NCBI GenBank assembly: GCA_001687465.1
Contig: LVLI01000066.1
Coordinates: 62,001-122,302 of the forward strand
Direction of reading: 5' to 3'
DNA length: 60,302 nt
Source of the DNA: Halocafeteria seosinensis
Taxonomy: Eukaryota
The number at the start of each line of letters is the position of its first letter. Within the stretch, counting starts at the first letter, position 1. The notes below the pieces were generated by a model. That model was given only the letters and a program-made list of their open reading frames with translations, had not been told where the DNA came from and ran no database searches. Of this stretch, positions 1-37,700 are shown piece after piece. A program made the translations under genes and the position numbers.

Positions 1-2445
1 GGTCTCTCGAAGAGACCGAGGGTAATGAGATAGGTGAGGTGATGAAGGATAAGTTCACGTGGGTACTATATCTTCAAATGCATCATTTGATACATGTAGA
101 AAATGAGTACGCGAAAGCTGATGGGGATACATGCTTGGGGATTCTTCTCTCCAAGAGCTTCATGAAGCTTAAGGAAACCTTTAGCGACGAGGTTGCTGCG
201 TGCGATATTACCGCGCAGCAAGCAGCGTAAACAGAGTGATATTCTTTTCCTCCTGGATGGGTGCGACGAAGTAAAAACTAATCCATTTGAACTTGGTTCA
301 CTCGGTGGGAGAATGTTTTCCGTTCTTCGCCAAATGGGAGTGTTCGTTTTTGTATCGTCGCGATTCTCGAGTCATACGGCGAGTCGTCAGGATGGTATCC
401 CCTTAGTTAACAGGTACTTTAGCTCTTTTGTAGTGGTGGAGGGACTCACACCGGAGGCTCGCAAACTTTTTGTGGAACAATATGCTCAAGAACGTTATCC
501 AGACAGCAGAGGTAACCAACTGCATCTTTCCCAGACACTGCAGCTCTCCTTCCGGCTCAACGATCGGCTTGACTATCTCGGTGCTAATCCGACGCTCCTG
601 GAAGCGATATGTTTTGTATATGTAGAGAGCTCAGGAAGCTTCTTTGAATCTACAAAGAAGGACATTCGCATCACGCCAATTTACGCTCGGACTGTGAAAC
701 ATTTGGTGCACAAATGGTCGACGATATCATGCTCGTCTTCACCCGACGATGATCCCCTTGACGTGTCACTAAAAATGTTAGAGGATGTAGCCTTACGACT
801 GGACGAAGATGGAGAAAATCTTCATGAGGAGAACGTTTCCACTGATAAAGACGTGTCTCTACATCGTTTGCAAAAGATCTTTGCAAAGTATCGCGAGGAA
901 TTTCGGGGACCACTAAAGTCTGTAGAGCGGGTGACCGAGTTTTTCGAGCGTGTTGGTCTGTTGAGGATTGTGTGCCGCACGGGTGACGCAGATCAAACCT
1001 ATGAATTCATTCATCGTTCTTACTGGGAATATTTTGTGGCTCTAGGGGAATTTAGAAAGAGTAAGTCTCGCCCCGCCAGATACCTTATTCAATCTGAGTC
1101 TCGACTTTGGGATCGGGTTTTCGACTTCTACGTCAGCATATTTAGCGAACAGCAAAACATTAACACTATTACTGATTTGCTTCATAGCTTACATGGTTTG
1201 CTATGTGGGGAGCATGTATCCGGTTGTACACCAGATCAAGGCCCCCATCGGTTCACCGAACTTTTACTTGAAGTGCATCCAGATAAATTGGAAAAAGTAT
1301 CGCTTCACATGATAATGTCGGCTTCAGACGAAATACGATCGCTTTTGTTTTATGCAGGTGAAATAGGCAGTTTTCGTCTTGTTAGCTGGATCCTAGCTCA
1401 GACTGCTCAGCGTAACTATCAATGTGGCGAGAAGGAAACCTATAGCGAGCAAAGAGCACTTGTCCAAGTTGCACTCGCGGGATCTTCGAAAGGAGGACGA
1501 TCTGCTTGTTGCCGAAGGATACTGGATACCATGGATACTGATTTTTATCGGGTTGAGGAAACTTCGTGGTCAGCTATTTACATAGCATCGCGAGAAGCTA
1601 GTGCCCCGGGAGCTGCCGCATGTTTGCAGTTGCTACTGGCTGAAGCTAAGCTGTCCGAAACCCCGGAGTTTATTAAACAGGAATCTATGAAAATCGCAGG
1701 AGAACGGAGTCACGAACGTTGCGTCGCCCTGTTCTTAATCTGGTGTGACGGTGTTGTAGGTGAAGTCGCTGCACAAGTATTGGGTGACGCCTGGATGTCG
1801 ATGGCCCCACAAAAAAGAATAAATGCCGCAAAGAGTGAACTTAATTGTTTTGAAGAGTTAGTACAAGCGTTGCAACGGGATGATGTGGAACGACTTTACG
1901 CACTCAATGATGGCGGAAAGGATGTAAGCTTACAGTTCTCTCGAAAGGGACATGAGAATTGCTATTCTCCCGTATGGATTGCTGTGATATTAGACAGACC
2001 AAACACAATATTGCCATTGTATACGTGCAATGCGACTATCGACGAAGTGCTTCCATACCAGCGTGTAAAGTTGATGTTTGAGGAAGTTTATCCTCGGTCA
2101 AGTGAAATGGACTGTTGGCTGAACACCGAGCTCTCCATGGATGAAGAGACGAAACTGACGCCTTATGCTTTAGCCTCGAGCTTGGGGCGAATTGATTGTG
2201 TGGAAGCTTTGGAGCAAACAAAGGTGCCTCTCAAGAATGATAAAGCACTGAGTCTTGGTCCTCTTCGAGGAGCCATACGAACTGGCCAGTTGGCCTGTGT
2301 CAAACACTTCGTTGGCGAAGGAAGAATAGACACCGACTTAATTGAGGAGTCAATTTTGTTTGATCGAAATGTAACTTTGGAATTTTTGCTTTCTCGGAGG
2401 CAATTGACCGAAACACCTGACCAGGACGACGAGTTTGTTAGTTAT

Positions 2446-3003
2446 TGTTTTCATTTATGTTTAAAGAAGGACAGTGGAAAATGCCTGCTGGAATTACTGG
2501 ATGGAGCTGAATGGAGACGGTTATTGCGTGATCGGGCGGGATATTCAGACAACGAGTTTGTTAGTTATTGCTTGCATTCATGCTTAAAAAGCGATTGCGG
2601 GAAGTGCCTCGTCGAGTTGCTGAATACGTCTCAATGGATGGATATACTCTGCCAGCAGAAGGGATGCTCTTTTGCGAAACTCATCGGCTCTTGCTTGCAA
2701 TCATGCTTAGAAAATGATTGCGGGAAGTGCCTCGTCGAGTTGCTGAATACATCTGAATGGATGGATATATTCTGCCAGCAGAAGGGGTGCTCTTCCGCGG
2801 AACTCATTGGTTTTTGCTTTCAGTCATGCTTAGAGAAAGATAGCGGAAAGTGCCTCGTGGAGCTACTGAGAACAAGTCGATTGCAAAATATTCTCTGTGG
2901 ACAAGGCGAGTCCACTGAAGATTTTACTGTTCGGTGCTTTAAAATGTGCTTAGAGAAGAATCGTGGAGGTTGTGTTGAGGGTTTGCTAAGTGTGACTCAA
3001 CTG
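2446..3003 (+). repeat. 123-bp (41-aa) Cys-rich coding repeat, about 5 units
   Basis: Units of the form CFQSCLEKDSGKCLVELLNTSxWxDILCxQKGCSxxELIGx are visible in both protein and DNA. Confidence 0.85.
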
Positions 3004-3876
3004 AACGACAGTATCGTCCCTACGGCTCATAGGGCCACTGTCGCTATCAATGACGCGGTGACACTCGATGCGATCTATTGCTTGGAGCCCCTTGTATATT
3101 CCTGTTTGGAGAGATTTTCTTCCGAAATAGTGGGATTGAGGGACGAACACATCATCTTAGCCGCAAAATATGGCTCGGAGCGTGTTCTACGGACATTGAT
3201 TACCAAGCTGAAGGTGCAACCCTCGCAATTGTTCACTGAGCAGGGACATTATTCTTTACTATTTTTGGCGGCTTTGAATGGTCATGATAAATTGATAAAA
3301 TCTCTGATGGGAGACTTTGAAATCAGCACACATCAAGGAGTCTCAGAGCAAGGCGAAAGTGTTTTGTTTGCAGCAGCCTTGAGTGGGAATGTAAATTGTC
3401 TAAACGAATTGCCAAGTTCCGATGTAGCGAATCTCAAAGAGCAAAAAAGTTCGTATGGGCTGTTACCTCTTGATGTGGCTTGTCTGGTGGACTCTTCGGA
3501 ATGTATCAAATTCTTAATGCCCACTAAGCACACGGAGTCGGGCAAGAAGAGGCTGAAAATCCGCCACGAGTGGCTACGCGATCTCCCTGATACTGTCTCG
3601 CTGCCTTGTGTGCTAACTGAGCAGATTGTTCATGATAAACAGCGCAAGAGCAAAGTTCATACGGTCGAGGTAAATGCAAAGACTATTGTCGATAATCTGT
3701 TCAAAGCGCTACCTACATACACGTCTGTCGCACATGGCACGGATCAGCAGCAGCAGCAGCAGCATCATTACGATGATGATCATAAACGCAGTAACAACAA
3801 CGCATATACACCTAGTACGACACCGGAATATGACAACCAAGATGAAGATGGGTTTGAGGTATTGGACATGGAAGAA

Positions 3877-4420
3877 TGCAATCAATCCACGATTACAGAT
3901 GATGCGTTTGGACATATTGGTCAACTATCGCAATTGCGAGTATTGCGGATGTTTGGGTGCAATCAGTCCACGATTACAGATGATGCGTTCCGACACATTC
4001 GTCAGTTATCACGATTGCAAAGACTGAATATGATTGGGTGCGATCAATCCACGATTACAGATGATGCTTTCCGACATATTAGGCAATTATCACAATTGCA
4101 AGAATTGTTGGTCAAAGGGTGCAATCAATGCACGATTACAGATGATGCTTTCCGACATATCGGTCAATTATCGCAATTGCGAGTATTGTGGATGAATGAG
4201 TGCAATCAATCCACGATCACAGATGATGCGTTCCGACATATTGGGCAGTTATCACAATTGCGAGAATTGTTGGTCAAAGAGTGCAATCAAGCCACGATTA
4301 CCGATGAAGCGTTCCGACATATTAGGCAATTATCGCAATTGCGAGTATTGTGGATGAGTGGATGCGATCAGTTTTCGGAGGATGCATTCCGACATGTCCG
4401 TCATTTGTCCCATTTGGAAA
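3877..4420 (+). repeat. 81-bp (27-aa) LRR tandem array, 6 full units plus a terminal unit
   Basis: The tgc-aat/gat-caa-tcc-acg-att-aca-gat-gat-gc unit recurs at 3877, 3958, 4039, 4120, 4201 and 4282, with a terminal unit at 4363. Protein consensus is CNQSTITDDAFRHIGQLSQLxxLxMxx. Confidence 0.95.
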
Positions 4421-5399
4421 TACTTGGGAAGAGAGGGGCAACCACTGGTTCGGAGGGACTTGAGACAGTCCGCGAAGATAGCTAGGCGTGTCTACATGCG
4501 CCATGACACGTGTTCATGTCAAAGACGTACGGACACCGGTTAAGTGCGCCCACGTGTATAGTGAGCTCGTTTCTGGAGAAGAGCTTGAATCGATTTAGGG
4601 AACCCGAACGTAAACCAGAACTATGGGGTATACTAAGCTTAAACAGTTCGAAACGTAGGTATTACGATAATCTTGAGGTGGCGCCGATCTAAATAGGTGC
4701 ATTTATTATTCCTCCCATCACATGAAGCTCAATCATATCTTCACCTGTACTGTTTTAGTAACGTCAGCATGGATATATCTAGAGCGTTCTATTAGCCAGG
4801 CCACTGGTCAGATCTTTAGTGCATTGCCGTCCAACACCTAGCAATCCGCAATGACTTTTCGTTGTTAGACACTAGACGGAGCACCAAGAATTTGCCACGT
4901 CCTGGATTTAGGTACCGATGGTTTCACCACACGCGCCCTTCCATTCCATCATGTTCAAACCCAATTCACAGGTTTGCGCACTAGTGGTGACAAGGCACAG
5001 CTGGGGAAGTGCTGTCACATATGTGTGTGTGCTGGCAATGTGAACTCCGCAGCCGAAGTATGAGAGAAAGGAAAAGAAATGGTAGTTGTTCAACCGCACT
5101 TCCAGTTTGTGTGCAGTTCATAGAGGAGAAGGGACTGGTATGAATGCTGCCGAAGGTCATACTACGGTGCGCATGTTCAAAAAGTGCCAACCTACGCTAA
5201 TAGCACCAACTACCGTACGTTGAAATGATTTGTTCAAAGAAGCAGGCACCGGTCAAGGTTCCAAAAGTTGCTGATGTTGGTCAGAACCCAGCTATACGGA
5301 ATCGGTTAACGGAGTCCGTTTTCTGTTAATCTAGCAGCTGCCAGCTATATCAGAATGACCATTAGTTGTTCCAGCTGGACAGGATACGCAGCTTACAGA

Positions 5400-5715
5400 T
5401 GGATTTGAAACTTTGATAAATCCGCTCCAATAATATGGACTATCACACCAACGTTTGCTGGAACATATTAGCAGCTGAAGAAGTCTCTTCCGAACCTGGA
5501 GATGTTGCTTGTGTTATGAAGATAGCCGGTTGAACAATCTGGTTGCCCTTCGGAGAAGTGTCCAATCGACCGTCCTTGGCGTTTGCGCCAGATATTGTTG
5601 TAGAATGACTAAAGTATCGCATCTATGATTCGAGGATAGGAAAAGTTCACTAGATATCCCCAGCATTGCCAAGACAGCTACCCGAATAGGGTTGTTTCGC
5701 CCATCCTCTTTTACT
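5400..5715 (-). pseudogene. Degenerate relic of the C-terminal part of the phosphatase gene at 15516-18026
   Basis: 5411-5710 (tttgataaatccgctcca...atggactatcacacc...aagtatcgcatct...cccagcattgccaagacagct) is colinear with 15735-16030 (tttgacaagtccactcca...atggactatcacacc...aagtatcgcatct...cccagtattgccatgacagct), with indels. Confidence 0.8.
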
Positions 5716-6620
5716 AGGCTTCCTGCGAGTCACCTTCTATATATACAGTATATGTACTTTATCCCTTGGGAACCCGTTCTCCATATTCTTCGCTCTTTAA
5801 TGACCCGAAGGTTTCGTCCGAAAAATCTCGTGACCCTGTTTTAGCGTTGATTTTGCCTACCATTTATCCTCTGCTAGGGGAAGCTCCAGAGCTCGCGAAG
5901 GTGTCGACAGCCTGACGACAGGCCTCTTCGGCGCAGTTTGTACTACATGTATGCGACTGTTCGAGTTTTGTTCCAGCTTTCTTCCGATTTTGATATAGAG
6001 GGACCTTCCATCTCCCCTTCCACCATTGGTACATTCCCCACCGCTTGCTTGCCAACATATCTGCTCACACAATACAAAAAATATACGTACAGTATGTTGA
6101 TGTTGCGAGCTGGGTTCCGCACTTCCACCAAAGGTTCACACGCAGCAAATGCTTAACAAGTTTGCCAGCATTGTCATTCATTTCTTGTTTCTATCTTCAC
6201 ATACGTATTTATCTGTCCCTCTCTCTTTGTGTCTTCCTAGCAGCCTCAGGCCCCGTGAGAGTTGTGTACAGTATCAGCTGGAGTAAGTAGGTGCCTATTG
6301 CTCTTCCTCTCATACACTATATTGAGCATTACTAGATGCAACCACTTGCGCAACACCCTACAATTGCTCCTCTGCACCAGACAGCTTAGGCGCGGTCGAA
6401 GATTCCCGAGAAAAACGACCCGATTCGTTCCGTTACCCTTAGTGAGATCAGACAGCCTATCACCCACCTCGGGAGGAGGCAGACGGGCTGGAGCTTTCCC
6501 TCTCCTATACTGTACGGTATATCTACACAAGAAGAAGAACAAGAGACAAAGAAGGAAGGAATTATTTATTTATTTGTCTGTTTGTGTCTCTCTTTGTGGG
6601 AGTATCCTTCCTTGTTCGAC

Positions 6621-9600
6621 ATGAGAGGCAGCCGAATCCAAGCCCGCTTCGAGGAGGAGAAAGATCATCAGACCCCACCAGCGTGTTCAGAAGAGCACAC
6701 CACCACTACCACCACCTCCACATTGCGAAGACAGCATGGAATGAGGAGACTGGGGTCAGTATCATCCAAGTGGAGGTGGATGAACATCATAGCACTGGTG
6801 GGAACGCTGTTGTTCTTCTTGGCAGCGGCGACTTTGGAGCTCCAGCCTCCTGCGGATCCAGAACCAGGCTCCCAATTCCTCCGTCATACCAGTGCTCACA
6901 AGGATGATGCGAATGTGGAAGCTTCGGTGCGTCGACGGAATCTGAGTCCGTTGGAAATGTCGTTTCTCCCCGAGTGGCTGGTTTGGGTGATCCGAATACT
7001 TGTCCCCAGTGGTGTATTAGGATTCCTCGGGCGCTGGATGTGGAAGTGGTGTCTAATTCACCAGTATCGCAAAGATGATCCCTTCTGCTATCGCGTCGCC
7101 ACAGAGCTGGGGTTGGATTCAACCACATACGCTCGGGCTGATCCGAATGACATGGATGCTCCGACGGATTATCGACCCCATCTACTGCGTCAATACTTGA
7201 TGGATAACTTACAATTGCTGGTTGTCTGGTCCCCCGGTCAGAACTCTTTCGTTCCGTTAATTTCCTATCTCCATGATAACAGGGATCAAATACGTCATGT
7301 TTGCGCTTGCCGAGGGAGTGGTGTGAACGACTTAGCTTCATCGTTCGCTGGGGCTCTGCAACATGGTGTGGGTAATTCAATTGAACAAAGCCAAGCAGGT
7401 GCTTTAACACCTGTGCTTGCTGTCCAGAAGTTTAGGCTTATACGGGGAGGGTGCTGTCGAAGGTTATTGTGTTTGGGTCGAGTGATAGAGCCTTGGGCGC
7501 TTGAACCAAGTCATTGCCCCGATTTGAAGCATGATGTATTCCTGAGGTGGTGCGGTGGCATTGCAAGCTCAGGAGAGTATGCTAGTCTTGTAAAGATCGC
7601 AAGGCCTCCGGTGTCTTTGTCCATAAAATGCGATGATATTATGGACCCTGACTACATTCCTGTCAACGTCGTCTGGGACAATACCCAAAGTGAATCTGCA
7701 TGGACCAGTATTATAGGGGAACAGAAAATTATGATTTCGCTAGAGCCAGCTCAAACGGGTACACCATGCCCTGTTGAATTCGTTGCAAAGACTGCAGGAG
7801 GAATTCCGGATCGTCGCCGTAGTCTAGAATCTCCGACTCAGCTTAGTTTGGAAAGACTGAAGCAAGGAAACTACGGCCTGCGTCTCACCCCGAACGCACT
7901 AATTGAGAGACCTAGTAACGAACATGGCAATACTCCGTTTTATGTGCATGCGTTTGTAGAATCAACAGACAACTACCGGTTGGGACAACTTAACAACGTA
8001 CGTGAATATCACGAACTTCAGTGCTCCTCCTGGGAACATCCGTTAGTTAAGCAAGCTGAATATCGTGAACGCCTTCGGCGTTGGTGCAATAATCCTAGCA
8101 ATAACAGCATTGTACAACCCATCCAATCCCCACAAGGATGGCTGAATTTCCCGGCGGTGACCAGCGTAGAGAACAATTACTTCAATGATGAGCCTGGATG
8201 GAAGTGGGAGGCGGGTGAGGAACCATTCTGGACAAATTTAGCTCCTACGTCGGATATGTTCATTTCCCTGTGCGAACACAGTCCTATCGAGCTCTGTCGA
8301 GGGGATAGCAACAGAATCTCTGTCGATCACCTCATTTCATGTCCTCAGAAAATTAGTGTGCATCCGACGGAAGCATCCCTTTACTCTAACAATGAAAATC
8401 CCCGACGCGTGCCCTTTGAATTTCACTTGCAATGCAGTCATAAGATGCATGCAGGGATCGAACAAACGCGTTTATTTGTATTTAGTTATATCGCAAACAC
8501 GAATAGGTCGGAAGTGCGATTTGACTGGAGCAAACTGCCTCCATTGTTCAAGTGTGATTTTCTCCGCTTGCTATATCGAAGCTGGAGGCTTCACCGTCTC
8601 TTTAGTCACGACAGGGAAAAATATTTAGGCACGAAGGAGCGACCGATGTTGAACGATTGCTATCAAAAGCTGACGCTACTAGACAAGCACTCGAAGAATC
8701 CTAACGAAGAGACCCAGACGAGGGAAATCAATGCGACGGAGCTGCTTTCCTTGCCTAGCAGCAACGGCAAATGGGTTCTTTTTGAAGGGCCCGCCGGTGT
8801 TGGCAAAACTACCTTGTTTAAACATTTTGCCCAATCATGGTCTTTATCTGGAAATGAAGCAGAAGAAAATGAAATTGGGCGTCTATTAAGAGATAAATTT
8901 TCATGGATAATTTGTATTCAGCTTTATCACTTGATGGATATTGAGTGCCACGATAGCGCTGCGGATGGAGAGACGTACCTGGGGAGTCTTCTTTCTAAGA
9001 GTTTCTTGGCTCTAAAAGAAAGTCTCAAAGGCAATGATTCCTCTCAGCAAATTAGCAAAGAGGAAGGCAAACGGATTGTAGAACACATACTAAAGAATGG
9101 TAAGGATGTTCTCTTTCTGTTAGATGGGTGCGATGAAGTAAAGAACAATCCGTTCTCGGCGAAGTCTCACGGCAATAAAGCCTTTACGGCACTGCGGCAA
9201 ACTGCAGCCACAGTGCTTGTCTCATCGAGGTTCTCAAGTCATACGGCGAGCCGGGATCAATACGGAATTCTTCTCGCTGCTAAGTATATTAACTACTTCG
9301 TTGAAGTCGAGGGGCTTCAGCCAGAAGCTCGACGAGGTTTTATACAGCACTATGCTGCTGAATGCTATTCGGATAAGAGGAACCGTTTGAAACTTTATCG
9401 GAATTTACAGCTGTCATTCCGACTTAATGATCGTCTTAAAGAACTGAGCTCAAATCCGACCCTTTTGGAAGGGATTTGCTTCGTATATGTGGAAAGCGAA
9501 GGTAGATTCTTTGAGTCCACAACGAAAGACTTCCGTGTGACGCCGATTTATGACCGGACAGTGCACCATCTGCTGGACAAGTGGTGGAGATCGTACACTT

Positions 9601-12600
9601 CGAGTGCCGACGAAGACCCTTGTAAAATAGCAAAGAAGATTCTCGAAGATGTAGCTTCTCAGGTGGATAGAGATGATGGCTACACTGATAAACAGATTCC
9701 TCTTAAATTATTGCAAGAAGCTTTTGATAGCCACCGAAGGAAATTCCGAGGACCGTTGAAGCGTCTGAGGGGACCGAGTGAGTTTTTCGAAGGTGTAGGC
9801 TTGTTGCAAATAGTATGTCCCAGTGGTGATGAAAACCAGACTTACGAATTCATCCACCGATCCTACTGGGAGTACTTTTTGGCGCGTCAGCAATTTAAGA
9901 CTGTGGATCCAAGAAATGTTGAAAGTCTTGTCGAGGGGGGATCGCGTCTCGGGGATCGGTTTATGGATTTCGTTGTTAGCCTCTTTAGTGAACACCAGAA
10001 TTTAGAGGCTGTTACCACTTTGCTTTGTAGTTTGCACAGATCCCTGACAGGTCAGGAAGACGAAGCGTCTCGCGGACGCAGTCGTTTCGTAGAGCTTCTT
10101 CTGGAAGTCGATCCCGGGGCCTTGGAGCAGATATCGCTGAGTGAAATCACGTGTACTGCTGAAGAAATGAAGCTTTTGCTATTTTGTGCGGGGCAAGTAG
10201 GCAGTCTTCGCCTCATCCGGTGGATTTTAGATAATTGCAGCGATAGCTCAGTGAACCGGTTAGAGCTGAACCAAATCGCACTCGCTGGCGCGGTAAAAGG
10301 AGCACGCTTTGATTGTTGTCGAGCTGTTTTGGATACATTAGAAACTAAATTTTACCTGATAACCGATGTCGCATGGTCGCCGATTTATATTGCATCGAGA
10401 GATGGATGTGCTCTCTGTCTGCAGTTACTGCTCAGCTGGCTCCTGGCTCGTCCCAACCTTCCAGCTATTGCTGACTCTGTCAGGCACGAATCTTTGAAGA
10501 TAGCAGGACAACAAAACCATGATCGCTGTACTTCCTTACTCTTGATCTGGTGCGAAGGCAACATTGATGATTGTAATGCGCCAGTCCTGAGTGACTTCTG
10601 GTTCTCGCTGAATAGAGAGGAAAGGATCAGTAACGCGAAGCACTATCTTGACTGTTTTGACGACCTAGTCGAAGCGTTGCAGGACGAGAATGTGGACCGA
10701 CTATATGCACTCAACGACGACGGAAAGGATGTAAGTTTGCAGTTCTCTCGGAGGGGACAAGAAAATTGCTACTCCCCAGCATGGGTTGCTGTTGCATTAG
10801 ACAAGCCAAACACAATATTACCATTGTATACGTGCAATGCGACTATCGATGAAGTTCTGCCTTCTCGACGTATCAAGTTGATGTTCCAAGAAATTTGCTC
10901 GACGTCAACGTCAAGCGAAATGGAATGTTTGCTGGACAAGGAGCTCTCCGTGGATGAAGAGACGGAACTTACTCCTTATGTTTTAGCCTCAAGTCTGGGA
11001 CGACTTGATTGTGTGGAAGCCCTGGAGCAAACGAAAGTGTCTCTGAAGAACGATGCAGCACTAGGTCTTGGTCCTCTGCGAGCAGCCGCCCGAACGGGCC
11101 AGTTGGCATGCCTGAAGCACTTTCTCGAAGCAGGACGCATATATATAGATACAGAGGTAATCAAGGATTCCATTTTGTTTGATCGAGATGAAACTTTCGA
11201 GTTTTTGCTTTCTCAAGGGAGTCAATGGGCAATTACCATCGATTTTATCGGGTATTGCTTCCAATTGTGCCTAGAGCAACGTAGCATAGGATGTCTTGAG
11301 TTATTGCTGGCTAACGAATGGAAAGATCAGCTTTGTCAACATGGTCAGTCCAATGAAGGGGAGGTCATGAGCCAGTGTTTGCATATATGTCTCGACGAAG
11401 ATAGTGGACGTTGTCTTGGGGCATTGCTTAGCACAAAGCAGTGGAGAGATGCGGTCTGTCGGCATGAGGGATTTCATATGGAGGAACTCGTTTATCAGTG
11501 CTTTCAGCTATCAATGGAGAAAGACAACACAAAGTGTCTTGAGGAGCTACTTGACGTCGATGAGTGGAGACAGTTGCTTTATCAACATGCGGGATACAAT
11601 GAAGGAGAGTTCTTGGATCATTGCTTCCAGTTGTGTATCGAACACGACAAGAATAAGTGTCTCGTGCACTTGATAGGTTCTGAGCGGTGGAGAGGTTCTC
11701 TTTGCCAGTTCAATGGATGCAGTGAAAATGGTCTCATTAACTCTTGCTTTCAGTCGTGCTTAAACAAAGATAGTCGAAAGTGCCTAGTGGAGCTTCTGAG
11801 TACAACTCAATGGAAAGATATGCTCTGCGAACAGGAGAGGTTAACTTTTGAAGAGCTCATCGGTTCTTGCTTTCAATCATGCTTGGGAAACGATCGCGGG
11901 AAGTGCCTCGTCGAGTTACTGAATACATCTCAATGGAAGGATTTACTCTGTGAACAGATGGGATGCTCGTTTACTGAACTCATCGGTTCTTGCTTAGAGA
12001 AAGATAGTGGGAAGTGCCTCGTTGAGTTGCTGAATACATCTCAATGGAAGGATTTACTCTGTGAACAGATGGGATGCTCGTTTACTGAACTCATCGGTTT
12101 TTGTTTTCAGTCATGCTTAGAGAAAGATAGCGTAAGGTGCCTCGTTGAGTTGCTGAATGCATCTCAATGGAAAACTTTACTCTGTGAGCAGAAGGGATGC
12201 TCGTTTACTGAACTCATCGGTTCTTGCTTTCGGTCATGTTTAGAAAAAGATAGTGTAAAGTGCCTCGTTGAGTTGCTGAATGTATCTCAATGGAAGAATT
12301 TACTCTGTGAGCAGAAGGGATGCTCGTTTACTGAACTCATCGATTCTTGCTTTCGGTCATGCTTAGAGAAAGATAGTGAAAAGTCCCTCGTTGAGTTGCT
12401 GAATGCATCTCAATGGAACGATATACTCTGTGAGCAGGAGGAATGCTCGTTTACTGAACTCATCGATTCTTGCTTTTGGTCATGCTTAGAGTCAGATAGT
12501 GGAAAGTGCCTCGTAGAACTAGTGAGTACTAGCCTGTGGACCGATATGCTCTGTGAACAAGGCGAGTCCGTTGAAGATTTTACTGTCCGGTGCTTTCGAT

Positions 12601-14066
12601 TGTGTATAGAAAGAGATCGTGGACGCTGTGTTGAATGTTTGCTAAGCGCCACGCAACTGAGTAACAGTATCATCCCTACGGCTGACATGGGAGAGGTCGC
12701 TATCAAAGACGTAGTGAAATTAGATGCGATCCATTGCTTGGAGCCTCTTGTATCTTCCTGTGTGGAAAAATTTTCTTCCGAAATTGTTGGGTTGAGGGAA
12801 GAGCACATCTTCTTGGCCGCAAAATATGGTTCGGAGCCCGTTCTACGGACATCAATCTCCAGACTGAAGATACAACCCTCACGATTATTCACGGAGCAAG
12901 GACATTATTCTTTACTATTCTTGGCGGCTTTGAATGGTCATGACGAGTTAATGAAATCTCTTATGGAAGACTTTGACATTAACGCACATCAAGGAGTCTC
13001 AAAGCATCGCGAAAGTGTTTTGTTTGCGGCAGCCCTGAGTGGAAATGTGAATTGTCTAAAACAATTGCCAAATTCCGATGTAGCATATCTTAGGAAGAAA
13101 AAGACGTCGTATAAACTGTTACCTCTTCATGCGGCTTGTCTAATGGACTCTTCGGAATGTATTAAATTCTTAATGCCCACTGAACCTTGGTTGGACGACA
13201 ACAGCCAGAAGACGAGGCTGAGGATCCACCCAGAGTGGCTACGCGATCTCCCTGATACTGTCTCGTTGCCTCGCGAGTTAACTGAGCACATTGTTCATGA
13301 TGGGCGGCGCAACAGAAATGTCCATATGGTCGAGGTGAATGCAAAGACTATTGTTGATAATCTATTCAAAGCGCTACCTACATACACGTCTGTCTCAAGA
13401 CTCTCAACTGACACCCGTAGTACGTATGATGATCATCATCATTATCAACAGCAGCATAATTACGATGACGATCATAATTTCAGTAACAACAGTGCATATA
13501 CACCGAGTACGACCCCAGAACATGACAACCAAGAAGAGGATGGGTTTGAGTTATTGGGTATGAGTTTGTGCAACCAATCCACAATTACAGATGATGCGTT
13601 CCGACATATTGGGCAATTATCACACTTGCAACACTTGTTTATGAATGAGTGCGATCAATCCACGATTACAGATGATGCGTTCCGATATATTGGGCAATTA
13701 TCACAGTTGCGAAGATTGGATATGATTGGATGCAATCAATCCACGATTACAGATGATGCGTTCCGACATATCGGTCAGTTACCACACTTGCAAACATTGT
13801 GGATGAATAGGTGCAACCAATCTACGATTACAGATAATGCGTTTCGACATATTGGGCAATTATCACAATTGCAAAGACTGTGGATGATTGGGTGCGATCA
13901 ATCCACGATTACAGATGATGCGTTCCGACATATTGGTCAATTATCACAACTGCAAACATTGTGGATGATCGGGTGCAATCAATTTTCAAAGGATGCGTTC
14001 CGACATGTCCATCATTTGTCCCATTTGAAAATACATGGGAAGATAGCCGCAACAAAAGATAGCTAG
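6621..14066 (+). CDS. Membrane-anchored NLR-like STAND protein: TM segments, unknown N-terminal domain, NACHT, ankyrin-like repeats, 41-aa Cys repeats, ankyrin-like repeats, His/Gln linker, LRR
   Basis: Intronless ORF of about 2480 aa from ATG 6621. Hydrophobic segments WMNIIALVGTLLFFLAAA and WLVWVIRILVPSGVLGFLG; Walker A GPAGVGKTT; Walker B VLFLLDGCDE; winged-helix YEFIHRSYWEYF; ankyrin-like LLFLAALNGH and LPLHAAC; C-terminal 27-aa LRRs. Confidence 0.9.
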   Translation: MRGSRIQARFEEEKDHQTPPACSEEHTTTTTTSTLRRQHGMRRLGSVSSKWRWMNIIALVGTLLFFLAAATLELQPPADPEPGSQFLRHTSAHKDDANVEASVRRRNLSPLEMSFLPEWLVWVIRILVPSGVLGFLGRWMWKWCLIHQYRKDDPFCYRVATELGLDSTTYARADPNDMDAPTDYRPHLLRQYLMDNLQLLVVWSPGQNSFVPLISYLHDNRDQIRHVCACRGSGVNDLASSFAGALQHGVGNSIEQSQAGALTPVLAVQKFRLIRGGCCRRLLCLGRVIEPWALEPSHCPDLKHDVFLRWCGGIASSGEYASLVKIARPPVSLSIKCDDIMDPDYIPVNVVWDNTQSESAWTSIIGEQKIMISLEPAQTGTPCPVEFVAKTAGGIPDRRRSLESPTQLSLERLKQGNYGLRLTPNALIERPSNEHGNTPFYVHAFVESTDNYRLGQLNNVREYHELQCSSWEHPLVKQAEYRERLRRWCNNPSNNSIVQPIQSPQGWLNFPAVTSVENNYFNDEPGWKWEAGEEPFWTNLAPTSDMFISLCEHSPIELCRGDSNRISVDHLISCPQKISVHPTEASLYSNNENPRRVPFEFHLQCSHKMHAGIEQTRLFVFSYIANTNRSEVRFDWSKLPPLFKCDFLRLLYRSWRLHRLFSHDREKYLGTKERPMLNDCYQKLTLLDKHSKNPNEETQTREINATELLSLPSSNGKWVLFEGPAGVGKTTLFKHFAQSWSLSGNEAEENEIGRLLRDKFSWIICIQLYHLMDIECHDSAADGETYLGSLLSKSFLALKESLKGNDSSQQISKEEGKRIVEHILKNGKDVLFLLDGCDEVKNNPFSAKSHGNKAFTALRQTAATVLVSSRFSSHTASRDQYGILLAAKYINYFVEVEGLQPEARRGFIQHYAAECYSDKRNRLKLYRNLQLSFRLNDRLKELSSNPTLLEGICFVYVESEGRFFESTTKDFRVTPIYDRTVHHLLDKWWRSYTSSADEDPCKIAKKILEDVASQVDRDDGYTDKQIPLKLLQEAFDSHRRKFRGPLKRLRGPSEFFEGVGLLQIVCPSGDENQTYEFIHRSYWEYFLARQQFKTVDPRNVESLVEGGSRLGDRFMDFVVSLFSEHQNLEAVTTLLCSLHRSLTGQEDEASRGRSRFVELLLEVDPGALEQISLSEITCTAEEMKLLLFCAGQVGSLRLIRWILDNCSDSSVNRLELNQIALAGAVKGARFDCCRAVLDTLETKFYLITDVAWSPIYIASRDGCALCLQLLLSWLLARPNLPAIADSVRHESLKIAGQQNHDRCTSLLLIWCEGNIDDCNAPVLSDFWFSLNREERISNAKHYLDCFDDLVEALQDENVDRLYALNDDGKDVSLQFSRRGQENCYSPAWVAVALDKPNTILPLYTCNATIDEVLPSRRIKLMFQEICSTSTSSEMECLLDKELSVDEETELTPYVLASSLGRLDCVEALEQTKVSLKNDAALGLGPLRAAARTGQLACLKHFLEAGRIYIDTEVIKDSILFDRDETFEFLLSQGSQWAITIDFIGYCFQLCLEQRSIGCLELLLANEWKDQLCQHGQSNEGEVMSQCLHICLDEDSGRCLGALLSTKQWRDAVCRHEGFHMEELVYQCFQLSMEKDNTKCLEELLDVDEWRQLLYQHAGYNEGEFLDHCFQLCIEHDKNKCLVHLIGSERWRGSLCQFNGCSENGLINSCFQSCLNKDSRKCLVELLSTTQWKDMLCEQERLTFEELIGSCFQSCLGNDRGKCLVELLNTSQWKDLLCEQMGCSFTELIGSCLEKDSGKCLVELLNTSQWKDLLCEQMGCSFTELIGFCFQSCLEKDSVRCLVELLNASQWKTLLCEQKGCSFTELIGSCFRSCLEKDSVKCLVELLNVSQWKNLLCEQKGCSFTELIDSCFRSCLEKDSEKSLVELLNASQWNDILCEQEECSFTELIDSCFWSCLESDSGKCLVELVSTSLWTDMLCEQGESVEDFTVRCFRLCIERDRGRCVECLLSATQLSNSIIPTADMGEVAIKDVVKLDAIHCLEPLVSSCVEKFSSEIVGLREEHIFLAAKYGSEPVLRTSISRLKIQPSRLFTEQGHYSLLFLAALNGHDELMKSLMEDFDINAHQGVSKHRESVLFAAALSGNVNCLKQLPNSDVAYLRKKKTSYKLLPLHAACLMDSSECIKFLMPTEPWLDDNSQKTRLRIHPEWLRDLPDTVSLPRELTEHIVHDGRRNRNVHMVEVNAKTIVDNLFKALPTYTSVSRLSTDTRSTYDDHHHYQQQHNYDDDHNFSNNSAYTPSTTPEHDNQEEDGFELLGMSLCNQSTITDDAFRHIGQLSHLQHLFMNECDQSTITDDAFRYIGQLSQLRRLDMIGCNQSTITDDAFRHIGQLPHLQTLWMNRCNQSTITDNAFRHIGQLSQLQRLWMIGCDQSTITDDAFRHIGQLSQLQTLWMIGCNQFSKDAFRHVHHLSHLKIHGKIAATKDS
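11256..12658 (+). repeat. 123-bp (41-aa) Cys-rich coding repeat, about 12 units
   Basis: Period measured between units at 12102 and 12225 is 123 bp. Central units are near-identical, and one unit lacks 12 bp (CFQS). Confidence 0.9.
13569..14030 (+). repeat. 81-bp LRR tandem array, 5 full units plus a terminal unit
   Basis: Units start at 13569, 13650, 13731, 13812 and 13893, with a terminal unit at 13974. Confidence 0.95.
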
Positions 14067-19379: not shown

Positions 19380-20550
19380 ATGACTTCAGAAGACAAGATT
19401 AGCAAAGTGAAGCTCCCCCCCATTAAATGGGCCCAGAGGAAAGACTCCGTGTATATCACCATCGATATACCCGACGCCGAGGTCAAAAAACTCGACTTAC
19501 AGGGGAAATCCCTGGACTTCCAGTAAGTCCAATGTTCCCTCCCTCTGTCGAATATTGGAACATCTCCCAAAACGACAAAAAGGGTCCGGGGTTGGGAGGT
19601 CCCTTTGTCATCCCCGGGACTGAGGTACAAAGGGTCCGACCCCCCTCGGTGTCCCATCATTTTGTTCGATAATGGAGTTGTGAGCCATATGGAACGATAA
19701 TGAAGCCATGGGGAGTAACCTTGATATTGTCTCTATTGTATGCAGTGCTGTCTCGAAAGGAACGGAGTACCAGTGCAAACTGGAATTCTACAAGGAACTA
19801 GATCCGAACGACGAGGTAAGTTTATCTTTCAGATTGTTCGATGAAGTGAATTCGTCATATTTAGCTGCTATATGGACTCTCGGGTAACTCCCAAAGTACC
19901 GGCGCATAGGTTGACTTGGGTGTGCATGTATTCACGTCTTTTTTTTTCTTTGGTTTTGGGAACTTGCAGAATAGCAAATATGACATCAAGCCCCGTGAAA
20001 TTCACTTCCACATCATGAAGGTAAGCTCAATGAAGTTTGCAATGATTCATGATGAACTTGATTGATTTGACGATTACAGAAAGAAAAAGAGGATGAATAT
20101 TGGCCTCGCTTGCTCGAAGACAAGAAACTGGAAAAGACACATATTTCCATTGACTGGAGCCGCTTCGTGGACGAGGATGAAGAAGAAGGCGGATTTGATC
20201 TAGGCGACATGTCTGGTGGTGGAATGAACTTTGCTGACATGATGGGTGGAGGTGGCGGCGGTGGAGCCGGTGGAATGGATATGAACGCACTTCAACAGAT
20301 GATGGGACAAGGTGGAGGTGGTGAAGGTGGCGCCGGTGGCATGGATATGAACGCACTGCAACAGATGATGGGACAGCAAGGCGGCGGCGGTGGTGAAGGT
20401 GGAGCTGGTGGCATGGATATGAACGCGCTTCAGCAAATGATGGCACAACAAGGTGGTGGCGGCGGCGGCGAAGGCGGCGACGATGACAGTGATGATGAAG
20501 AGTTGCCCGATTTGGAAGGTGAAGACCAAAATAAGGGTCAACAAAAGTAA
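19380..20550 (+). CDS. HSP90 co-chaperone p23 (PTGES3/SBA1-like), multi-exon
   Basis: CS-domain motifs PPIKWAQRKDSVYITI, YWPRLL and IDWSRFVDEDEEE; GM-rich and acidic tail ending DDSDDEELPDLE. Confidence 0.92.
20266..20470 (+). repeat. Three coding repeats GAGGMDMNALQQMMxQ-G(n) in the p23 tail
   Basis: atggatatgaacgc occurs three times, separated by Gly runs. Confidence 0.9.
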
Positions 20551-31786: not shown

Positions 31787-34700
31787 TTAATGCTCACGGT
31801 AATCATCAACTACGTGGAACCCCGGAGGAACAATTCCGGCCAGCAACTGGCGAGTGGCCGGGCCAGCTGGCAGAAAACAGCTCAAAGAGTTTCCAGCACC
31901 AAACTTTCTCGCCCAAACGGCAGAGCTGGCTCCAGCGACAACAGTCAAAGCGCCTTGAGAAGTAATGGAAGTCATCGCATCGACAAGATCACGTGTACCT
32001 CCTTGGCATTCTTCAAGTTCAGTAGCGCCCAGGGGACCCGCCCAGACCACTGTTCCTGCTTCTCCAATGATCTCTTCGATCCTGCAAACAATTTCACACG
32101 GATATAGCTAACAGAATAACCACAAAGCATAACGATGTACTTACATTTCCTTCGTTTTACTCCCTATATCCAAGACGAACTTCCCTTCGGGAATCGACGG
32201 AAACACTTCCACATCTGTAGGTGATTGCTGACGAGGAGACTCCGTGCTTTTTTCTTTCGATTTCTTCCCCCGTGGTGATTTCTTCCCACTTTCAGCTGAG
32301 GCAGGAGCATTTTCCTTTGCCCCCAAATAATTTTGAACTACATTCTGTTCATCACTTGATAAGCTAGCTAAGGCCCTTAGAGACTTGTCAGCTTGAGATA
32401 TTGCCCCCTTCAGTGCCAACCAACCCCTAGATGCGGTAGCATCGATCTCCATGCCCGTCATGAATTCTGATTCAAACTCACTTAGAATCGAGGACCAATC
32501 ACCATCGGTTACAGAGAGGCCAGAGCTCCCAATTAAACGCGAGACCACAAACTCCCGAAAGTATCTTAGCAACGCCAAAGACTGATAAAGGCATTGTGAA
32601 TCACTCACGGAACCGGCAGAGGCAGCAACAGATTCGATGCATTTAAAGGCTTCAGAAATAGCCATAATAGTATTGGCACTATTGCCAGTAAACATACCAG
32701 GGTTTTGTCCGATTCCCGTCTGAGCAATCTGCGCAAATATCCCGAAGTTTTCGGCATCGGGAACAACAGAATATTCGTGTAGTTCCGATCCATATTCAAA
32801 TTCTTGTCCCAAACTGCAATGGATCCGTTCAGGGACATAAACTGTGATATACTCCGGTTTCGCAGCAATGTCAGGGCCAAAACGCAAAGGAGCCTTCCTG
32901 CGCTCCATTCTGTAAACTGTTTGTATGCTGTAATTACTGTAAGAGCTTGAGGGTCTAAGTAATCCCAAATATTCCTCAGGGTCCGAAGGCAATTCTGCCT
33001 CTAACAGTTCCCCGTTATAGTCTACTCCTCCACTTTCTTGTTTCGAACCGGTTGCTCTGATCGGGCTTGATCTCAGAGGTAGGTTCCGCTCAAATTCCTC
33101 AAGATCATCCTCGCCTTCCACAGGCGGCAGTTCCTCCCCAGCAGTCGAAAGTTCACTTTTCACTCGCTGCTTCCATGCATTCCGTTCAATATTTGAATCC
33201 ACACTGATGTCATCCGAGTCTTCTTCCTCCTCTTCGTCTTCACCCTCAGATTCTGGCTCTTCTAAATAACGCAGTTGGCTTGCCTCGGATGCTCTCTTGT
33301 TGCCACATAAGAAATCCACAGGAGAGTGTATTCGCACCCCTCGACGCTCCGCAGTGGTGTTTAATTTCCGAAGAATGACACCGACACTGTACCAGACCCT
33401 TTCGCCACAGACCAACCTGGTAGATCCTACTTTGATTCCCCGAACATGCTCAACGTACGCGGCACCAATAAGTCCACCCAGTACGATTCTATCAGCCCAA
33501 TCCACTGCATAAAGAGCCTGATATGCCCTTGCAACTAAAGAAGCCGGATTGCTACCACCACCCAACACGCACACCACAGGTTGTGGGGCGTCTAGTTCTG
33601 CCCGAGTGTGCGTAAACTGTTCTACTATCCGCTTAGCAAAAGAAGCCGCTCCCACAGAATAATCGGGATCTGTTGACTTTCTCGTGCTCAGATCCTTCCA
33701 TTCATCTTCAAAACAGACTCCATGCTCGCTTGAGGTACCTCCAATGCAATTGGTCAAATGTTCCTTTGGCCGATCAGAGAACGAGCGCAAAAACACGGAT
33801 CTCCCACGCCGAAACAAGATGCGACAAAGATCGTAACAGAGTCCTGCGGTAGAAGAGTTTATGATCCTTCCATATCTGCGTGTGGACAAGCATATATTGG
33901 GGATCGACGGTAACGTTTTATGCTTTTTAATCACATGTTGATCTACATCGCGGATTCCATGCACTGTATCACATATACTTCGTAGCGGCCGGACACCTGC
34001 CACAGAAGATGCGCTACTCTGGGTCACATTGACAGCATCAAACACGACAACATCAGCTAGCGAAGAAAGTGCACCTCTAAGAGCGGCTGTGTGAGACGAA
34101 ACGCGTTTCCAAAATGCACCGAATTCCGCAAAGTTTGCGAGGTTCGCTCGGACTTCACTAACATATCGATCCTCTTTGGCTCTTATGGACAAGTTGGCCA
34201 ACCCGCTGACGCATATCCCAATGTCGTCCTCAGATACACCTAAGCGACGAAAGAAACCTCGCATTTTCGTCATATTTAACCGTTCTCCACTACTTTCATT
34301 TATGGTGTGCAGAAGCTGATTACCAGTTACCCCAGCTTCGCATAATGCCCGACAATACGATACCCATCTGGACTTGGCACTGATACCCGGGCACATGGAA
34401 TATAGCCACAAGCTTGTGTGTACAGGAGACCACTCGTGGACCGGAGTCTTATCACACATTTCTACACCGCAGGGATTGGAAAGATGCTTCCGATGCAGGT
34501 TTATCAATGGAGAATCTACTTCGAATAGTTCAGCAATCATGCTCAAGCGCAATAGATTCTCAATCACAAGAACCGGCATTTTCGACGCTTCAGAAATCGC
34601 CTTGTCGACACGTCGCGGTAAGCTGGATATGCGTTTGACTTCTCCATCTACCTGGCTTTTCCAATCATCCCCATGAGAGTTGTCATCTGTGCTTTCACCT

Positions 34701-37700
34701 ATTAGAGTGCCGTTGAGCCCCAATGACTTAAGCACCGTTACAATCGGAGAGAGACTGGGAGTATATCCAAACCACGTTCCGAAACTATCCTCCTCTCCAT
34801 GAGGTATTGTTTTCTCGGCTGCTGGTATAGCCCCCAAGCCGTATGGTTCATCGATAGAAGTCTCGGGCAAGTAAGCTTCGGTACCCGGAAAACGCCCATT
34901 CTTGATGACATCATTTGGCAAAGGCATTCTACATGTACCCGAAGTAGACAACAAGATAATGGCCGAAGGTTTTTTGTTCTTGATGTGGGAAATTGTGTTG
35001 AGCACACTCAGCAATTTGGGGGACTTCATAATGACCTCTTCAGCTGTTGGTAATCGAGATGGATCAACCTTTTTCTGCCCGTGCTGCCCTCGAAGCTGCC
35101 TATAAACTTTCTCCCGTTCGGCAGAGATTTCCTCCGAGAAGTCCAAATCAGCCCTGATTAAAACAACCTTTCCAACAAGTGATTCCTTCTTCCGCAACGC
35201 ATTTTGTAGAGAATCTTTAGGGGACCTATGGACGAGTTGTTTCCCTTGAGAAGACCATACGTGTCGCTGTGGGAAGCCCAATTCTTGCCAGATATCAGCC
35301 CCTGTAGTGGGAGGGGTCAGCTGATTGATACCGGAGAGATGACGAGCATATACGGAGAACGAGCCTAGCATTTCTCCTAAAAATTTGCGAACGTTATCTG
35401 AGAGTGCCTGCCGGTAGGAGTCCGCTTCTCCAGAACTTCCCCCTTGATCGCCTGCTACAATTTCTGAGGGCTGTTCTTTCTTACCCTTGCCGCTTTGGGG
35501 TTTGCCTTTGGAGGAAGGCTTCTTACCTTTCGCACTTTTGTCTCCGCTGCCCTCCAGTAAACTGCGGTTACGGGAAATCAACCAGAGGGCACTGTTAGCC
35601 CACCTTATACCACGATCTACAGATGCAAGTCCAGCTGGCAATACCCTCAATAGGGCTTGCTCTGCCATACCTGTCGCCGCAGTGTCATCGAAGTCACAAC
35701 CGGCAACCTCGTTTTGGCCGTAAACTCTCCTCACGGCCGAGTCAACTGAAGCCGTAGCTCCAATATACGCCGCTTTACTCTCTGGTTGATACGACACATC
35801 TTCACCTGATATGTTGTAATCACCACTTTCGTATTCCTCAAGAAATTGTGACTCAGATTTATTCTGCTGTTGTGCCCATTCACGAGCCATCTTATCATCT
35901 GCATTTGTTAGATCTTTACAAGCAGTAATACCACTTGCAAGACAAACATGCAGGTCCTCAAATTTGCTGCTTGCCTCATCGGAGTCGTATTCACTCTCCG
36001 ACGGCGATTCTATCTCCTCTTCACTTTCCTCACCTGCGTCCGAGGCCTGTTGTTTATCAGCTGATGCCTTCGGTAAGCCGACACGCGCTCTCACGCGTCG
36101 TTTCGCCTTCCGCCACTTCCTCCGGCGGCGAACGTCTTCTCTCAAACGAGCCATTTTGGCATCGTGGTGGCGTTTCCACAAGGCAAATTTGCCTTCAACT
36201 GCAAGCACCGCAGAGTCACCATCTGTATGTCCCAACTCAGGAGTAACATCGAAATCACGTAGAGGCAGCTCCTCTTTTTGACGGCATGCTCCTGCAAGAA
36301 GGGGAATACTCTCCGCCAACCTGAGCAGCATTGATTTAGTATATTCCTCTAACTGGTGACGTTCACGGTGTCGTTTGCTTCGAGCTTGGGTGATAAGCAG
36401 TCCAAGTCGGCTTTTGCAAGAAGCATGAAAGGACCTGACTTTCTTCCTAATTTCTTTATCTTGTCTCGAGACGGATTCCTCTTCAGTTACAGGCGGTTCT
36501 TTCCCTTTCCCTTTTCCTTTGGATTTCGGCGTCTTTTCTCGCTTATCAGACGGGGCAGCTTCAGCGTCCTCTTCTTTTGGTAGTGACTCCATCAGCTTTT
36601 GCATTACAGTCTGATTATCTGATGTAATGAGATTTATGCCAAGTAAAAGACTTGATATACTTCCATCCCAGGTTTCTTCCGTGCCGATTAGTTCATTCAC
36701 TTGTGCGTGCAGCTGCTCAAATTCATCATAGAGCTCAGGTTTAAAAGCAAGACCCGGATTCAAAGCAATGAAAAGCCTCCGCTGTTTATCTCGGATTTGC
36801 TCCTGAGTCGGTGGCTCAGGGGGAGGCTGAATCTGGCTCAGGACTTCATTCAAAACCTCTTGCGCCACTCTTTCAGCAGCTCGATCGGAAAGCCGCTGAG
36901 AAAGGTCTTCTCTCTGCGGAAGAGAATCGTCTTCTGCGATAGCAATCCCGCGCAGAGCGATTCTTATTTGATTACCGTAATTTACTGGCGGAGCGGTTTC
37001 AAGAGCCCATGTCTCCCTGAATGTACCAGAGTCGTAGCTGCGGAAATAAAACGTCAGCTCCTCAGATGTCCGCGGGAGCAGACTGCCTCGCATCTGTCCG
37101 CACGTAAAGCGCGAAGGCACGATTTCACTGCTGTCGGTGCCCGCAAAGTTATCGTCTCCTACACCGAACATGCTACTCCGTTGTCCACCACCAGAAGAAC
37201 CTCGGCTTGAGTGCCGTGAACGCTCACCATGCAAAGGACTTGTGCCACCTGGGTCTACTCTTCGCCAGGAAAAGTAGACTGCACAATCGCTCTGATTCAC
37301 TAAACGAATACTGGCGTGGGCAAGAGTCATGTTAGCACTACCTAGACGGGCCTTCCGGCGCTCTTCCAATAGTGATCCACCCGCGTGGCACTTCAAAACT
37401 ACCCGCGGCCACCCTCTGGCCAGTTCCACGGGACCAGTAGCAACGCTGCTTGTTTCTTGTAGCTGGTTCGCAAAGTCTCCAAGATCCGGTCCATCTGGTC
37501 CTGTTGAAGCACCCTTGACTCCCGAAGGAGTAGTTGCATCCTCTACAATTTCGGCAACGAGTGAGGGGAGAGTCCCGATACCGGATGGACCCTCCAGCGT
37601 CTTTGAAGCCGACACACCTTCGACATTCAAAGTTGAACTGCCCTCGATAGTGGCCTCGTCATCCTGCTGCTCCGTCGTGGGAACTTCTTCGCGAGAATTC

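Follow-up and report, generated by a model that had tools for sequence, protein, structure and literature searches.

Why do two neighbouring genes of a microbial eukaryote end in repeat arrays that are almost constant along most of each unit and variable in one short segment? The question arises in the first 14 kb of a 60,302-nucleotide stretch of Halocafeteria seosinensis contig LVLI01000066.1 (hereafter the window, in whose own coordinates all positions are given), where two tandem paralogous genes, copy 1 (3..4485) and copy 2 (6582..14066, encoding protein P0001), both lie on the + strand, as do all of their features described here, and each carry a C-terminal array of 81-bp leucine-rich repeat (LRR) units. 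An earlier note on this DNA had set the pattern beside the concerted evolution described for repeats of fungal receptors and had proposed that recognition specificities are generated by repeat shuffling or gene conversion. Our analysis leads to a different account, in which the arrays are probably the C-terminal LRR domains, of the cysteine-containing (CC) type, of tandem NACHT paralogs, with a 20-residue scaffold kept by purifying selection and five fast-changing positions on the predicted binding face.

Variation is concentrated at five positions of the repeat unit

Array 1 (3877..4362) consists of six units, 1a to 1f, starting at 3877, 3958, 4039, 4120, 4201 and 4282, and array 2 (13569..13973) of five, 2a to 2e, starting at 13569, 13650, 13731, 13812 and 13893. 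Each is followed by a degenerate C-terminal cap unit that is shorter than the regular ones (4363..4437 and 13974..14048), and the two caps are identical to each other at 64 of 75 nt. The 11 units and 11 strand strings that the earlier note had read were all reproduced exactly, as was its observation that unit number is unequal between the copies (6 versus 5). Every one of the 11 units reads L-x-x-L-x-(M/V)-x-x-C with a 27-residue period, as expected of the LRR superfamily. The scaffold, given in that note as CxQSTITDDAFRHIxQLSQL, may fairly be called almost constant but not invariant: it is exact in 3 of 11 units, the other eight depart from it at one or two of the 18 fixed positions (10 of 198 cells), and 14 of the 27 positions of the unit vary in amino acid. 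At the DNA level, 26 of 60 scaffold nucleotides vary, mostly synonymously, as do 16 of 21 in the strand. The x positions of the strand (21, 22, 24, 26 and 27), which were chosen beforehand according to the LRR consensus, vary more than any of the other 22 and hold 3.58 of the 6.49 units of pairwise amino-acid diversity (55%), ranking top among 80,730 five-position subsets. An even spread of variation along the unit, which the earlier note had named as part of the outcome that would speak against it, was not seen.

When the LRR domain of copy 1 was modelled with AlphaFold2 (16-row alignment; predicted local distance difference test score, pLDDT, 86.6; predicted template modelling score, pTM, 0.84), the predicted fold was a solenoid in which each unit supplies a short strand and a helix, in all eight regularly spaced three-residue strands with a helix after each of seven. 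The strand falls at unit positions 22–24 and the helix at 8–14 (unit 1a begins at model residue 20), so that in the model the variable residues would sit where the earlier note had placed them. As in LRRs generally, the x side chains are expected to face the concave surface. Foldseek matched the model best to FBXL2 (6o60_C, E = 8.6e-13), then to FBXL17, Skp2 and KDM2B among others, with at least 500 LRR matches in the PDB at E up to 0.001. The CC-type consensus, LxxLxLxxCxxITDxxoxxL(a/g)xx(C/L)xx, spans 25–27 residues and has a helical variable segment, as given in the available text of its description (PMC2946307). The window arrays resemble CC-type LRRs such as those of FBXL2, Skp2 and GRR1, apart from small length changes: the unit has LxxLxLxxC, the ITD motif, the hydrophobic positions, the helix and an allowed length (27), but four residues instead of two separate C from ITD, and the part that follows the helix is one residue shorter. 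The FBXL2/Skp2/GRR1 type is carried by F-box proteins, whereas the window LRRs are carried by a NACHT ATPase.

The two classes of codon also differ in how they evolve. Pooled over 55 unit pairs, Nei–Gojobori (NG86) estimates for the x positions are dN 0.67 and dS 0.275 (nonsynonymous and synonymous divergence; omega, their ratio, 2.45), and for the other 22 codons dN 0.065 and dS 0.45 (omega 0.14). Counted as minimum changes, there are 16 nonsynonymous and 2 synonymous at the x positions versus 12 and 18 elsewhere (Fisher p 0.001). A two-partition codon model on the maximum-likelihood (ML) tree gave omega_x 3.93 (likelihood-ratio statistic 5.72, p 0.017) and a scaffold omega of 0.23 (p 1e-5), and omega_x was 6.6 on a star tree (p 0.0005), 6.5 on a scaffold-only tree (p 0.0006) and 3.3 on a strand-only tree (p 0.04). 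The dN/dS of the units, which the earlier note had singled out as a check, thus exceeds 1 at the x positions in the codon model (3.3 to 6.6) but is not significant in a tree-free count (p 0.25), and the same holds for positive selection at few surface positions of the kind described for fungal NOD-like receptors (NLRs). Six convex positions (4, 9, 12, 15, 16 and 19) lean towards uniformity here and vary freely in the relative P0002 introduced below; compared with these, the x positions have 16 versus 8 minimum changes and evolve 2.4 times faster per codon (p 0.03). As an internal control, the 41-residue repeats found further upstream in the same genes have dS 0.52, omega 0.33 and variation across 26 of 41 positions. 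Together, these comparisons give nominal support for diversification at what the sequence predicts to be the binding face.

The pattern of constant scaffold and variable strand is a trait of this class of LRR. No close copy of the window proteins came up in protein searches, the best match being P0002 (43% identity), a transcript-derived protein of 1401 residues with 15 detected 27-residue units, of which 13 regular ones average 51% alike. One P0002 unit is 90% identical to the window scaffolds, which places the window scaffold near the family consensus. The unit also exists in a widespread 24-residue version (CNQxTITDxAF...), and many relatives of the LRR unit are found in other combinations, including a kinase plus TIR protein (P0007) and Neochlamydia LRR proteins. 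A metagenome scan with the exact scaffold motif gave 0 loci, and a looser family motif gave at least 139 stretches, nearly all with 72-bp spacing, which represent relatives in other organisms. From the 137 looser-motif loci that were read, 18 arrays with at least five in-phase units were analysed; their mean unit identity is 0.64–0.82, with scaffold dN 0.05–0.20, scaffold dS 0.13–1.22 and x-position dN 0.22–1.05, figures in which scaffold conservation is inflated because the search motif fixes 11 residues. Seven freshwater metagenome contigs of 95–709 kb (L007, L017, L034, L036, L056, L067 and L071) have several separate arrays of 24-residue units each, and the metagenomic array of L032 has one unit with an in-frame stop.

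Further arrays may also exist in the genome of H. seosinensis itself. Sequencing runs X1 to X4, all contigs of a single study under one organism label, contain the locus; such contigs can reveal further arrays and cannot show absence. None of them bridges an array, none from X2 to X4 falls on 1–5247, which is a blank and not evidence, and some strand variants turn up in part of the runs only. In run X1, words of the scaffold core of array 2 reach a depth of up to 3079 versus ~55–112 in flanking contigs, and run contigs show, by eye, strand variants absent from the window (QSLWMGE, QRLNMNG and RTLDMIE) on matching scaffolds, which suggests more LRR arrays elsewhere in the genome, with the caveat that depth is not copy number. 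Two contig loose ends translate, again by eye, to 10-residue strings found in P0002, and a P0002-like gene is therefore probably present in the same organism.

Descent of the units and of the two paralogs

Sub-motifs of the strand do recur between units and copies, as had been noted, and they recur with the same codons. ELLVK of units 1c and 1e is written in identical codons and these units are sisters in the tree, RVLxM is found in 1a, 1d and 1f, and QTLWM in 2c and 2e. We attribute these recurring motifs largely to the common ancestry of units that arose by duplication. The tree of units has a star-like shape, with support only for 1c+1e (93%) and a weaker grouping of 1b+2b (66%), and ongoing repeat shuffling as the generator of the pattern is not borne out by a tree of this shape and by motifs largely shared by descent.

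Nor do the arrays look homogenised. Scaffold dS is 0.46 in array 1, 0.37 in array 2 and 0.44 between arrays, the same as the dS of 0.43 in the non-repeat 3' flank of the paralogs. Per 81 nt, units differ by 14.5 and 12.5 within the two arrays and by 14.3 between them, with a flank-based prediction of 15.8, and the longest in-phase identical tract is 38 nt. With scaffold dS near 0.45, within-array distances equal to those between arrays, no array-specific likeness of units and no tract longer than 38 nt, ongoing homogenisation or shuffling is therefore not demonstrated, and concerted evolution is not supported as the source of the pattern. Mean unit identity is 0.753 in array 1 (162 aa) and 0.793 in array 2 (135 aa), rising to 0.87 for the scaffold alone. 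High internal conservation in fungal NLRs is defined, in the available text of that study (PMC4986451), as over 85% identity in repeats over at least 100 residues, a level that neither array reaches (75–79%). Compared with the distant paralog P0002, the window units are closer to each other (scaffold identity 0.87 versus 0.67). We also searched the window for orphan donor units, whose existence had been suggested: a 30-nt core of the scaffold, with up to 3 mismatches allowed, has 11 matches versus 0 expected, all 11 within the arrays, and tblastn gave no match outside the genes, so that no orphan LRR unit was found in the 60 kb outside the arrays.

The two paralogs are mosaic in their divergence. 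Sliding windows place a switch in synonymous divergence at 1810..1990 in copy 1 and at 10620..10800 in copy 2, with saturation 5' of the switch and values of ~0.3–0.6 on its 3' side. The maximum chi-square is 74.9 after copy-1 residue 598 (nt 1984), a value reached by 0 of 500 permutations, and third-position identity at conserved codons changes from 129/282 (0.46) 5' of about this residue to 408/537 (0.76) 3' of it. The sensor halves of the paralogs are clearly younger in shared ancestry than their NACHT halves. The flanks downstream of the paralogs can be aligned in three patches only, at 74–81% identity. This mosaic probably arose when the sensor half was replaced or underwent gene conversion, much as unequal divergence of NACHT and C-terminal parts in zebrafish NLR-B30.2 genes was taken as domain-specific gene conversion by Howe et al. 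2016 (PMC4852459).

Architecture of the two genes

Copy 2 is an uninterrupted ORF (open reading frame) of 2494 codons with its first ATG at codon 14. [quoted passage not shown] It is followed by ~11 units of a 41-residue repeat (11271..12593, one unit being 4 residues short), ankyrin repeats (12915..13175; Pfam Ank_2, E = 4.8e-19, residues 2112–2198) and array 2. At the C-terminus, Pfam gives LRR_4 below threshold only (25.9 versus 27); with the LRRs read from the units themselves, a NACHT domain and C-terminal LRRs stand in a single uninterrupted ORF, the architecture that defines an NLR in the strict sense. The NACHT domain is very divergent, its best match past five close relatives having E = 6.2e-07, and the first 1200 residues of the protein match 15 proteins at E up to 0.001 among 1.84 billion representatives; as far as sequence searches reach, the family is very lineage-restricted.

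Ahead of the NACHT domain, copy 2 has two hydrophobic segments (6777..7046; residues ~66–86 and ~128–155), judged by eye, which are probably a signal or anchor and a transmembrane helix that would place the NACHT-LRR part in the cytosol. Copy 2 thus looks like a membrane-anchored NLR-like protein. A relative, P0126, has the same N-terminal layout, with a signal-peptide-like start and one transmembrane-like segment ahead of its NACHT domain. The stretch of ~550 residues that separates the hydrophobic segments from the NACHT domain (7029–8681) matches no Pfam family and has few relatives (P0126, P0128 and P0129); an Atlas look-up of the N-terminal 551 residues scores 0.80, which is a lead only.

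Copy 1 lacks its 5' end, which lies beyond the start of the window, and stops with TAG at 4483–4485. Frame 3 carries its reading up to nt ~227 and frame 1 from nt ~166/193 onward to the stop, with a reading-frame break at 166..228 between the Walker A and Walker B regions, where a MAFFT alignment shows a 23-nt gap relative to copy 2. The frame-3 peptide (3–227, 75 codons) matches P0001 residues 759–829 (E = 4e-19), and the frame-1 part comprises 1430 codons that remain open after the break. One X1 contig matches the window over 1–2622, break included, with 0 gaps and 0 differences. It is therefore probable that copy 1 was recently broken or truncated, or else that it is used from an internal start. 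An alternative genetic code was ruled out as the reason for the stops that copy 1 shows at its 5' end, since copy 2 stays open for 2494 codons and the copy-1 stops disappear when frame 3 is read. Pfam finds Ank_2 and LRR_14 in copy 1 (the latter at 54.2 bits, cut-off 40) and a partial NACHT domain at 17.4 bits, below cut-off. Its domains follow the order of copy 2, with five of the 41-residue (123-bp) repeats (2446..3057), ankyrin repeats (3259..3519; Ank_2, E = 3.1e-15, ORF residues 1023–1109) and array 1.

In both genes, the 41-residue array lies between the NACHT and ankyrin parts, with 5 units in copy 1 versus ~11 in copy 2. The AlphaFold2 model of the copy 2 repeats is all-alpha with three helices per unit (pLDDT 72), predicting a three-helix alpha-solenoid, and neither a PDB match by Foldseek at E up to 0.001 nor a Pfam match was found for it. 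Ahead of each LRR array lies a low-complexity linker rich in Q, H, D and N (3700–3830 and 13400–13510), of unequal length in the two copies. Contigs of run X1 that match copy 1 exactly have depths of ~50–70, a contig of the copy 2 3' flank has a depth of 112, and many copy-2 contigs show differences; this may reflect alleles, further paralogs or hemizygosity, depth again not being copy number.

Elsewhere in the window, a tandem repeat of 66–72 bp with ~3 copies (20244–20462) encodes a Gly-rich segment unrelated to the LRR arrays. Three N bases (21608, 21619 and 21641) lie at the start of an ORF with protein O-mannosyltransferase domains. A 2214-codon ORF on the − strand (32141–38785) has a MYCBP-associated protein domain; it and the other long intron-free ORFs point to a compact eukaryotic genome.

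Known systems, competing explanations and meaning

The closest case outside animals and plants is the LRR-ROCO family of Ectocarpus, described together with NB-ARC-TPR genes as candidate receptors (Zambounis et al. 2012, PMC3341825). In the available text of that paper, these are clustered paralogs of a non-animal, non-plant eukaryote with short regular LRRs, positively selected sites on the concave face and variable unit number, all as in the window, but there a separate 72-nt exon encodes each 24-residue LRR, exon shuffling is the mechanism put forward and the signalling domain is ROC-COR (PMC3341825). The window units are contiguous and in frame in one ORF behind a NACHT domain, not one repeat per exon, and no unit or orphan cassette lies outside the arrays in the 60 kb. 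Fungal NLRs with WD, ankyrin (ANK) or tetratricopeptide (TPR) repeats (Dyrka et al. 2014, PMC4986451) resemble the window genes in combining NACHT with tandem repeats, few variable surface positions and differences in repeat number; they differ in that the available text describes them without LRRs, with repeats above 85% identity and with concerted evolution, whereas the window arrays stand at 75–79% identity and scaffold dS ~0.45 and show no array-specific homogenisation. The zebrafish NLR-B30.2 genes share the unequal synonymous divergence of NACHT and C-terminal parts among paralogs, but their variable sensor is B30.2, their LRRs are not variable, and they number hundreds as opposed to two seen here (Howe et al. 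2016, PMC4852459). Metazoan NLRs have the same order of NACHT and C-terminal LRRs, and a 2014 survey found NACHT outside animals only with ANK, TPR or WD repeats (Yuen et al. 2014, PMC3879445). Unlike these, the window protein has ankyrin, 41-residue helical repeats and LRRs all after one NACHT domain, its N-terminus looks membrane-anchored, its NACHT is very divergent and its LRRs look CC-type. The LRRs of metazoan NLRs are ribonuclease-inhibitor-like. Later reports are said to concern NACHT joined to LRR in green plants.

On the account that we consider probable, one 27-residue unit would have been amplified in tandem at about the time of the last common ancestor of the paralogs' 3' halves (dS ~0.45), and the units would then have diverged mainly via point substitution, with structural positions frozen, other convex positions slow and x positions changing at or above the neutral rate; a unit would occasionally have been gained or lost (6 versus 5), and the whole 3' sensor half would have been exchanged between the paralogs at least once. 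The anatomy, the clustering of variation, the omega contrast and the mosaic divergence of the paralogs are observed, and from them we infer that the x positions may bind ligand, that the proteins may act as receptor switches like other STAND proteins and NLRs, and that selection for new specificities may drive the changes. Several results weigh against this account. The tests of omega use few codons from only 11 units, and recombination inflates omega; the tree-free count finds no omega above 1, 16 of 18 changes being nonsynonymous against an expected share of 0.79 (binomial p 0.25); in the 18 metagenomic arrays, x-position omega calculated from the dN and dS columns is ~0.4 to 3.2 with a median near 0.9, and near-neutral drift as suggested by this median would account for much of the pattern. 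The NACHT frame of copy 1 is broken. Scaffold and strand distances are discordant (Mantel r = -0.205; 0.32 +/- 0.20 when data were simulated 1000 times along the ML tree under site-specific rates, 0.7% of the simulations being as low, P = 0.007), and in a test resembling the pairwise homoplasy index (PHI) 108 of 231 informative site pairs are incompatible (p = 0.06). Finally, a rare synonymous CTG occurs in both 1b and 2d, which are unlike at 3 of 21 strand nucleotides but at 10 of 60 in the scaffold. The recombination tests that had been called for gave a divided answer on the 11 units, with discordance in the Mantel comparison and a PHI-like p of 0.06 on one side and no long identical tracts on the other; given the discordance of scaffold and strand, some past intra-unit exchange is plausible.

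[quoted passage not shown] The discordance, the PHI-like value, the 1b/2d mosaic pair, the unequal unit number, the younger 3' halves of the paralogs, the uniformity of convex positions that vary in P0002, and the run contigs that carry further strand variants on matching scaffolds at a core depth far above that of their flanks all agree with it, but scaffold dS is as high as that of non-repeat sequence, units of one array are no closer to each other than to those of the other, identical tracts end at 38 nt, unit identity stays below the fungal level (PMC4986451, available text), no orphan unit lies elsewhere in the 60 kb, and the five x positions need no recombination, 22 and 26 being mutually compatible by hand count. 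We consider this view unlikely. Simple drift deserves more weight, although we still regard it as doubtful: the x positions would be unconstrained, solvent-exposed residues changing neutrally while folding constraints hold the scaffold, without adaptive diversification. The x in LxxLxLxx stands for any residue by definition (PMC2946307, available text), and the tree-free count and the metagenomic median both lie within neutrality, yet the codon model gives omega_x above 3 with nominal significance on all four trees, and the x positions outpace convex positions that are free to vary in P0002. A different objection concerns function, namely that the LRRs serve as a protein–protein adaptor, comparable to F-box/LRR substrate receptors, in a regulatory STAND ATPase with a housekeeping or signalling role and not in an immune-type receptor. 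The nearest solved folds (FBXL2, FBXL17 and Skp2), the kinase plus TIR and Neochlamydia relatives with their other pairings, and an N-terminal region of 550 residues without family, for which the Atlas score is a lead only, would suit an adaptor; Pfam finds no F-box at E up to 0.01, and tandem paralogy, a broken copy, fast predicted binding residues and lineage restriction are the usual marks of conflict receptors, which makes the adaptor role rather improbable in our judgement. We would give very little credence to a cassette system in which the frame-broken but otherwise preserved copy 1 and further paralogous arrays donate LRR strand segments by gene conversion to the intact, membrane-anchored copy 2, yielding a germline or clonal repertoire; if true, it would be a repertoire of binding faces outside animals and plants, in a unicellular eukaryote.

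An LRR receptor is expected to combine a fixed scaffold with a variable concave face, and under the account preferred here, of selected scaffold and fast-changing strand, the window adds no new principle or mechanism of diversification. What is noteworthy is the setting, a continuous ORF with NACHT, helical repeats, ankyrin, LRRs and a probable membrane anchor in a microbial eukaryote, from a very lineage-restricted family and with tandem paralogs whose sensor halves were probably exchanged. The regular 24- and 27-residue CNQxTITDxAF unit amounts to a natural ‘idealised’ LRR scaffold with five free positions. If these proteins are recognition receptors, they would supply an independent instance, outside animals, of NACHT combined with LRR, and a compact system, with few units and no introns, for sensor-domain diversification in unicellular hosts.

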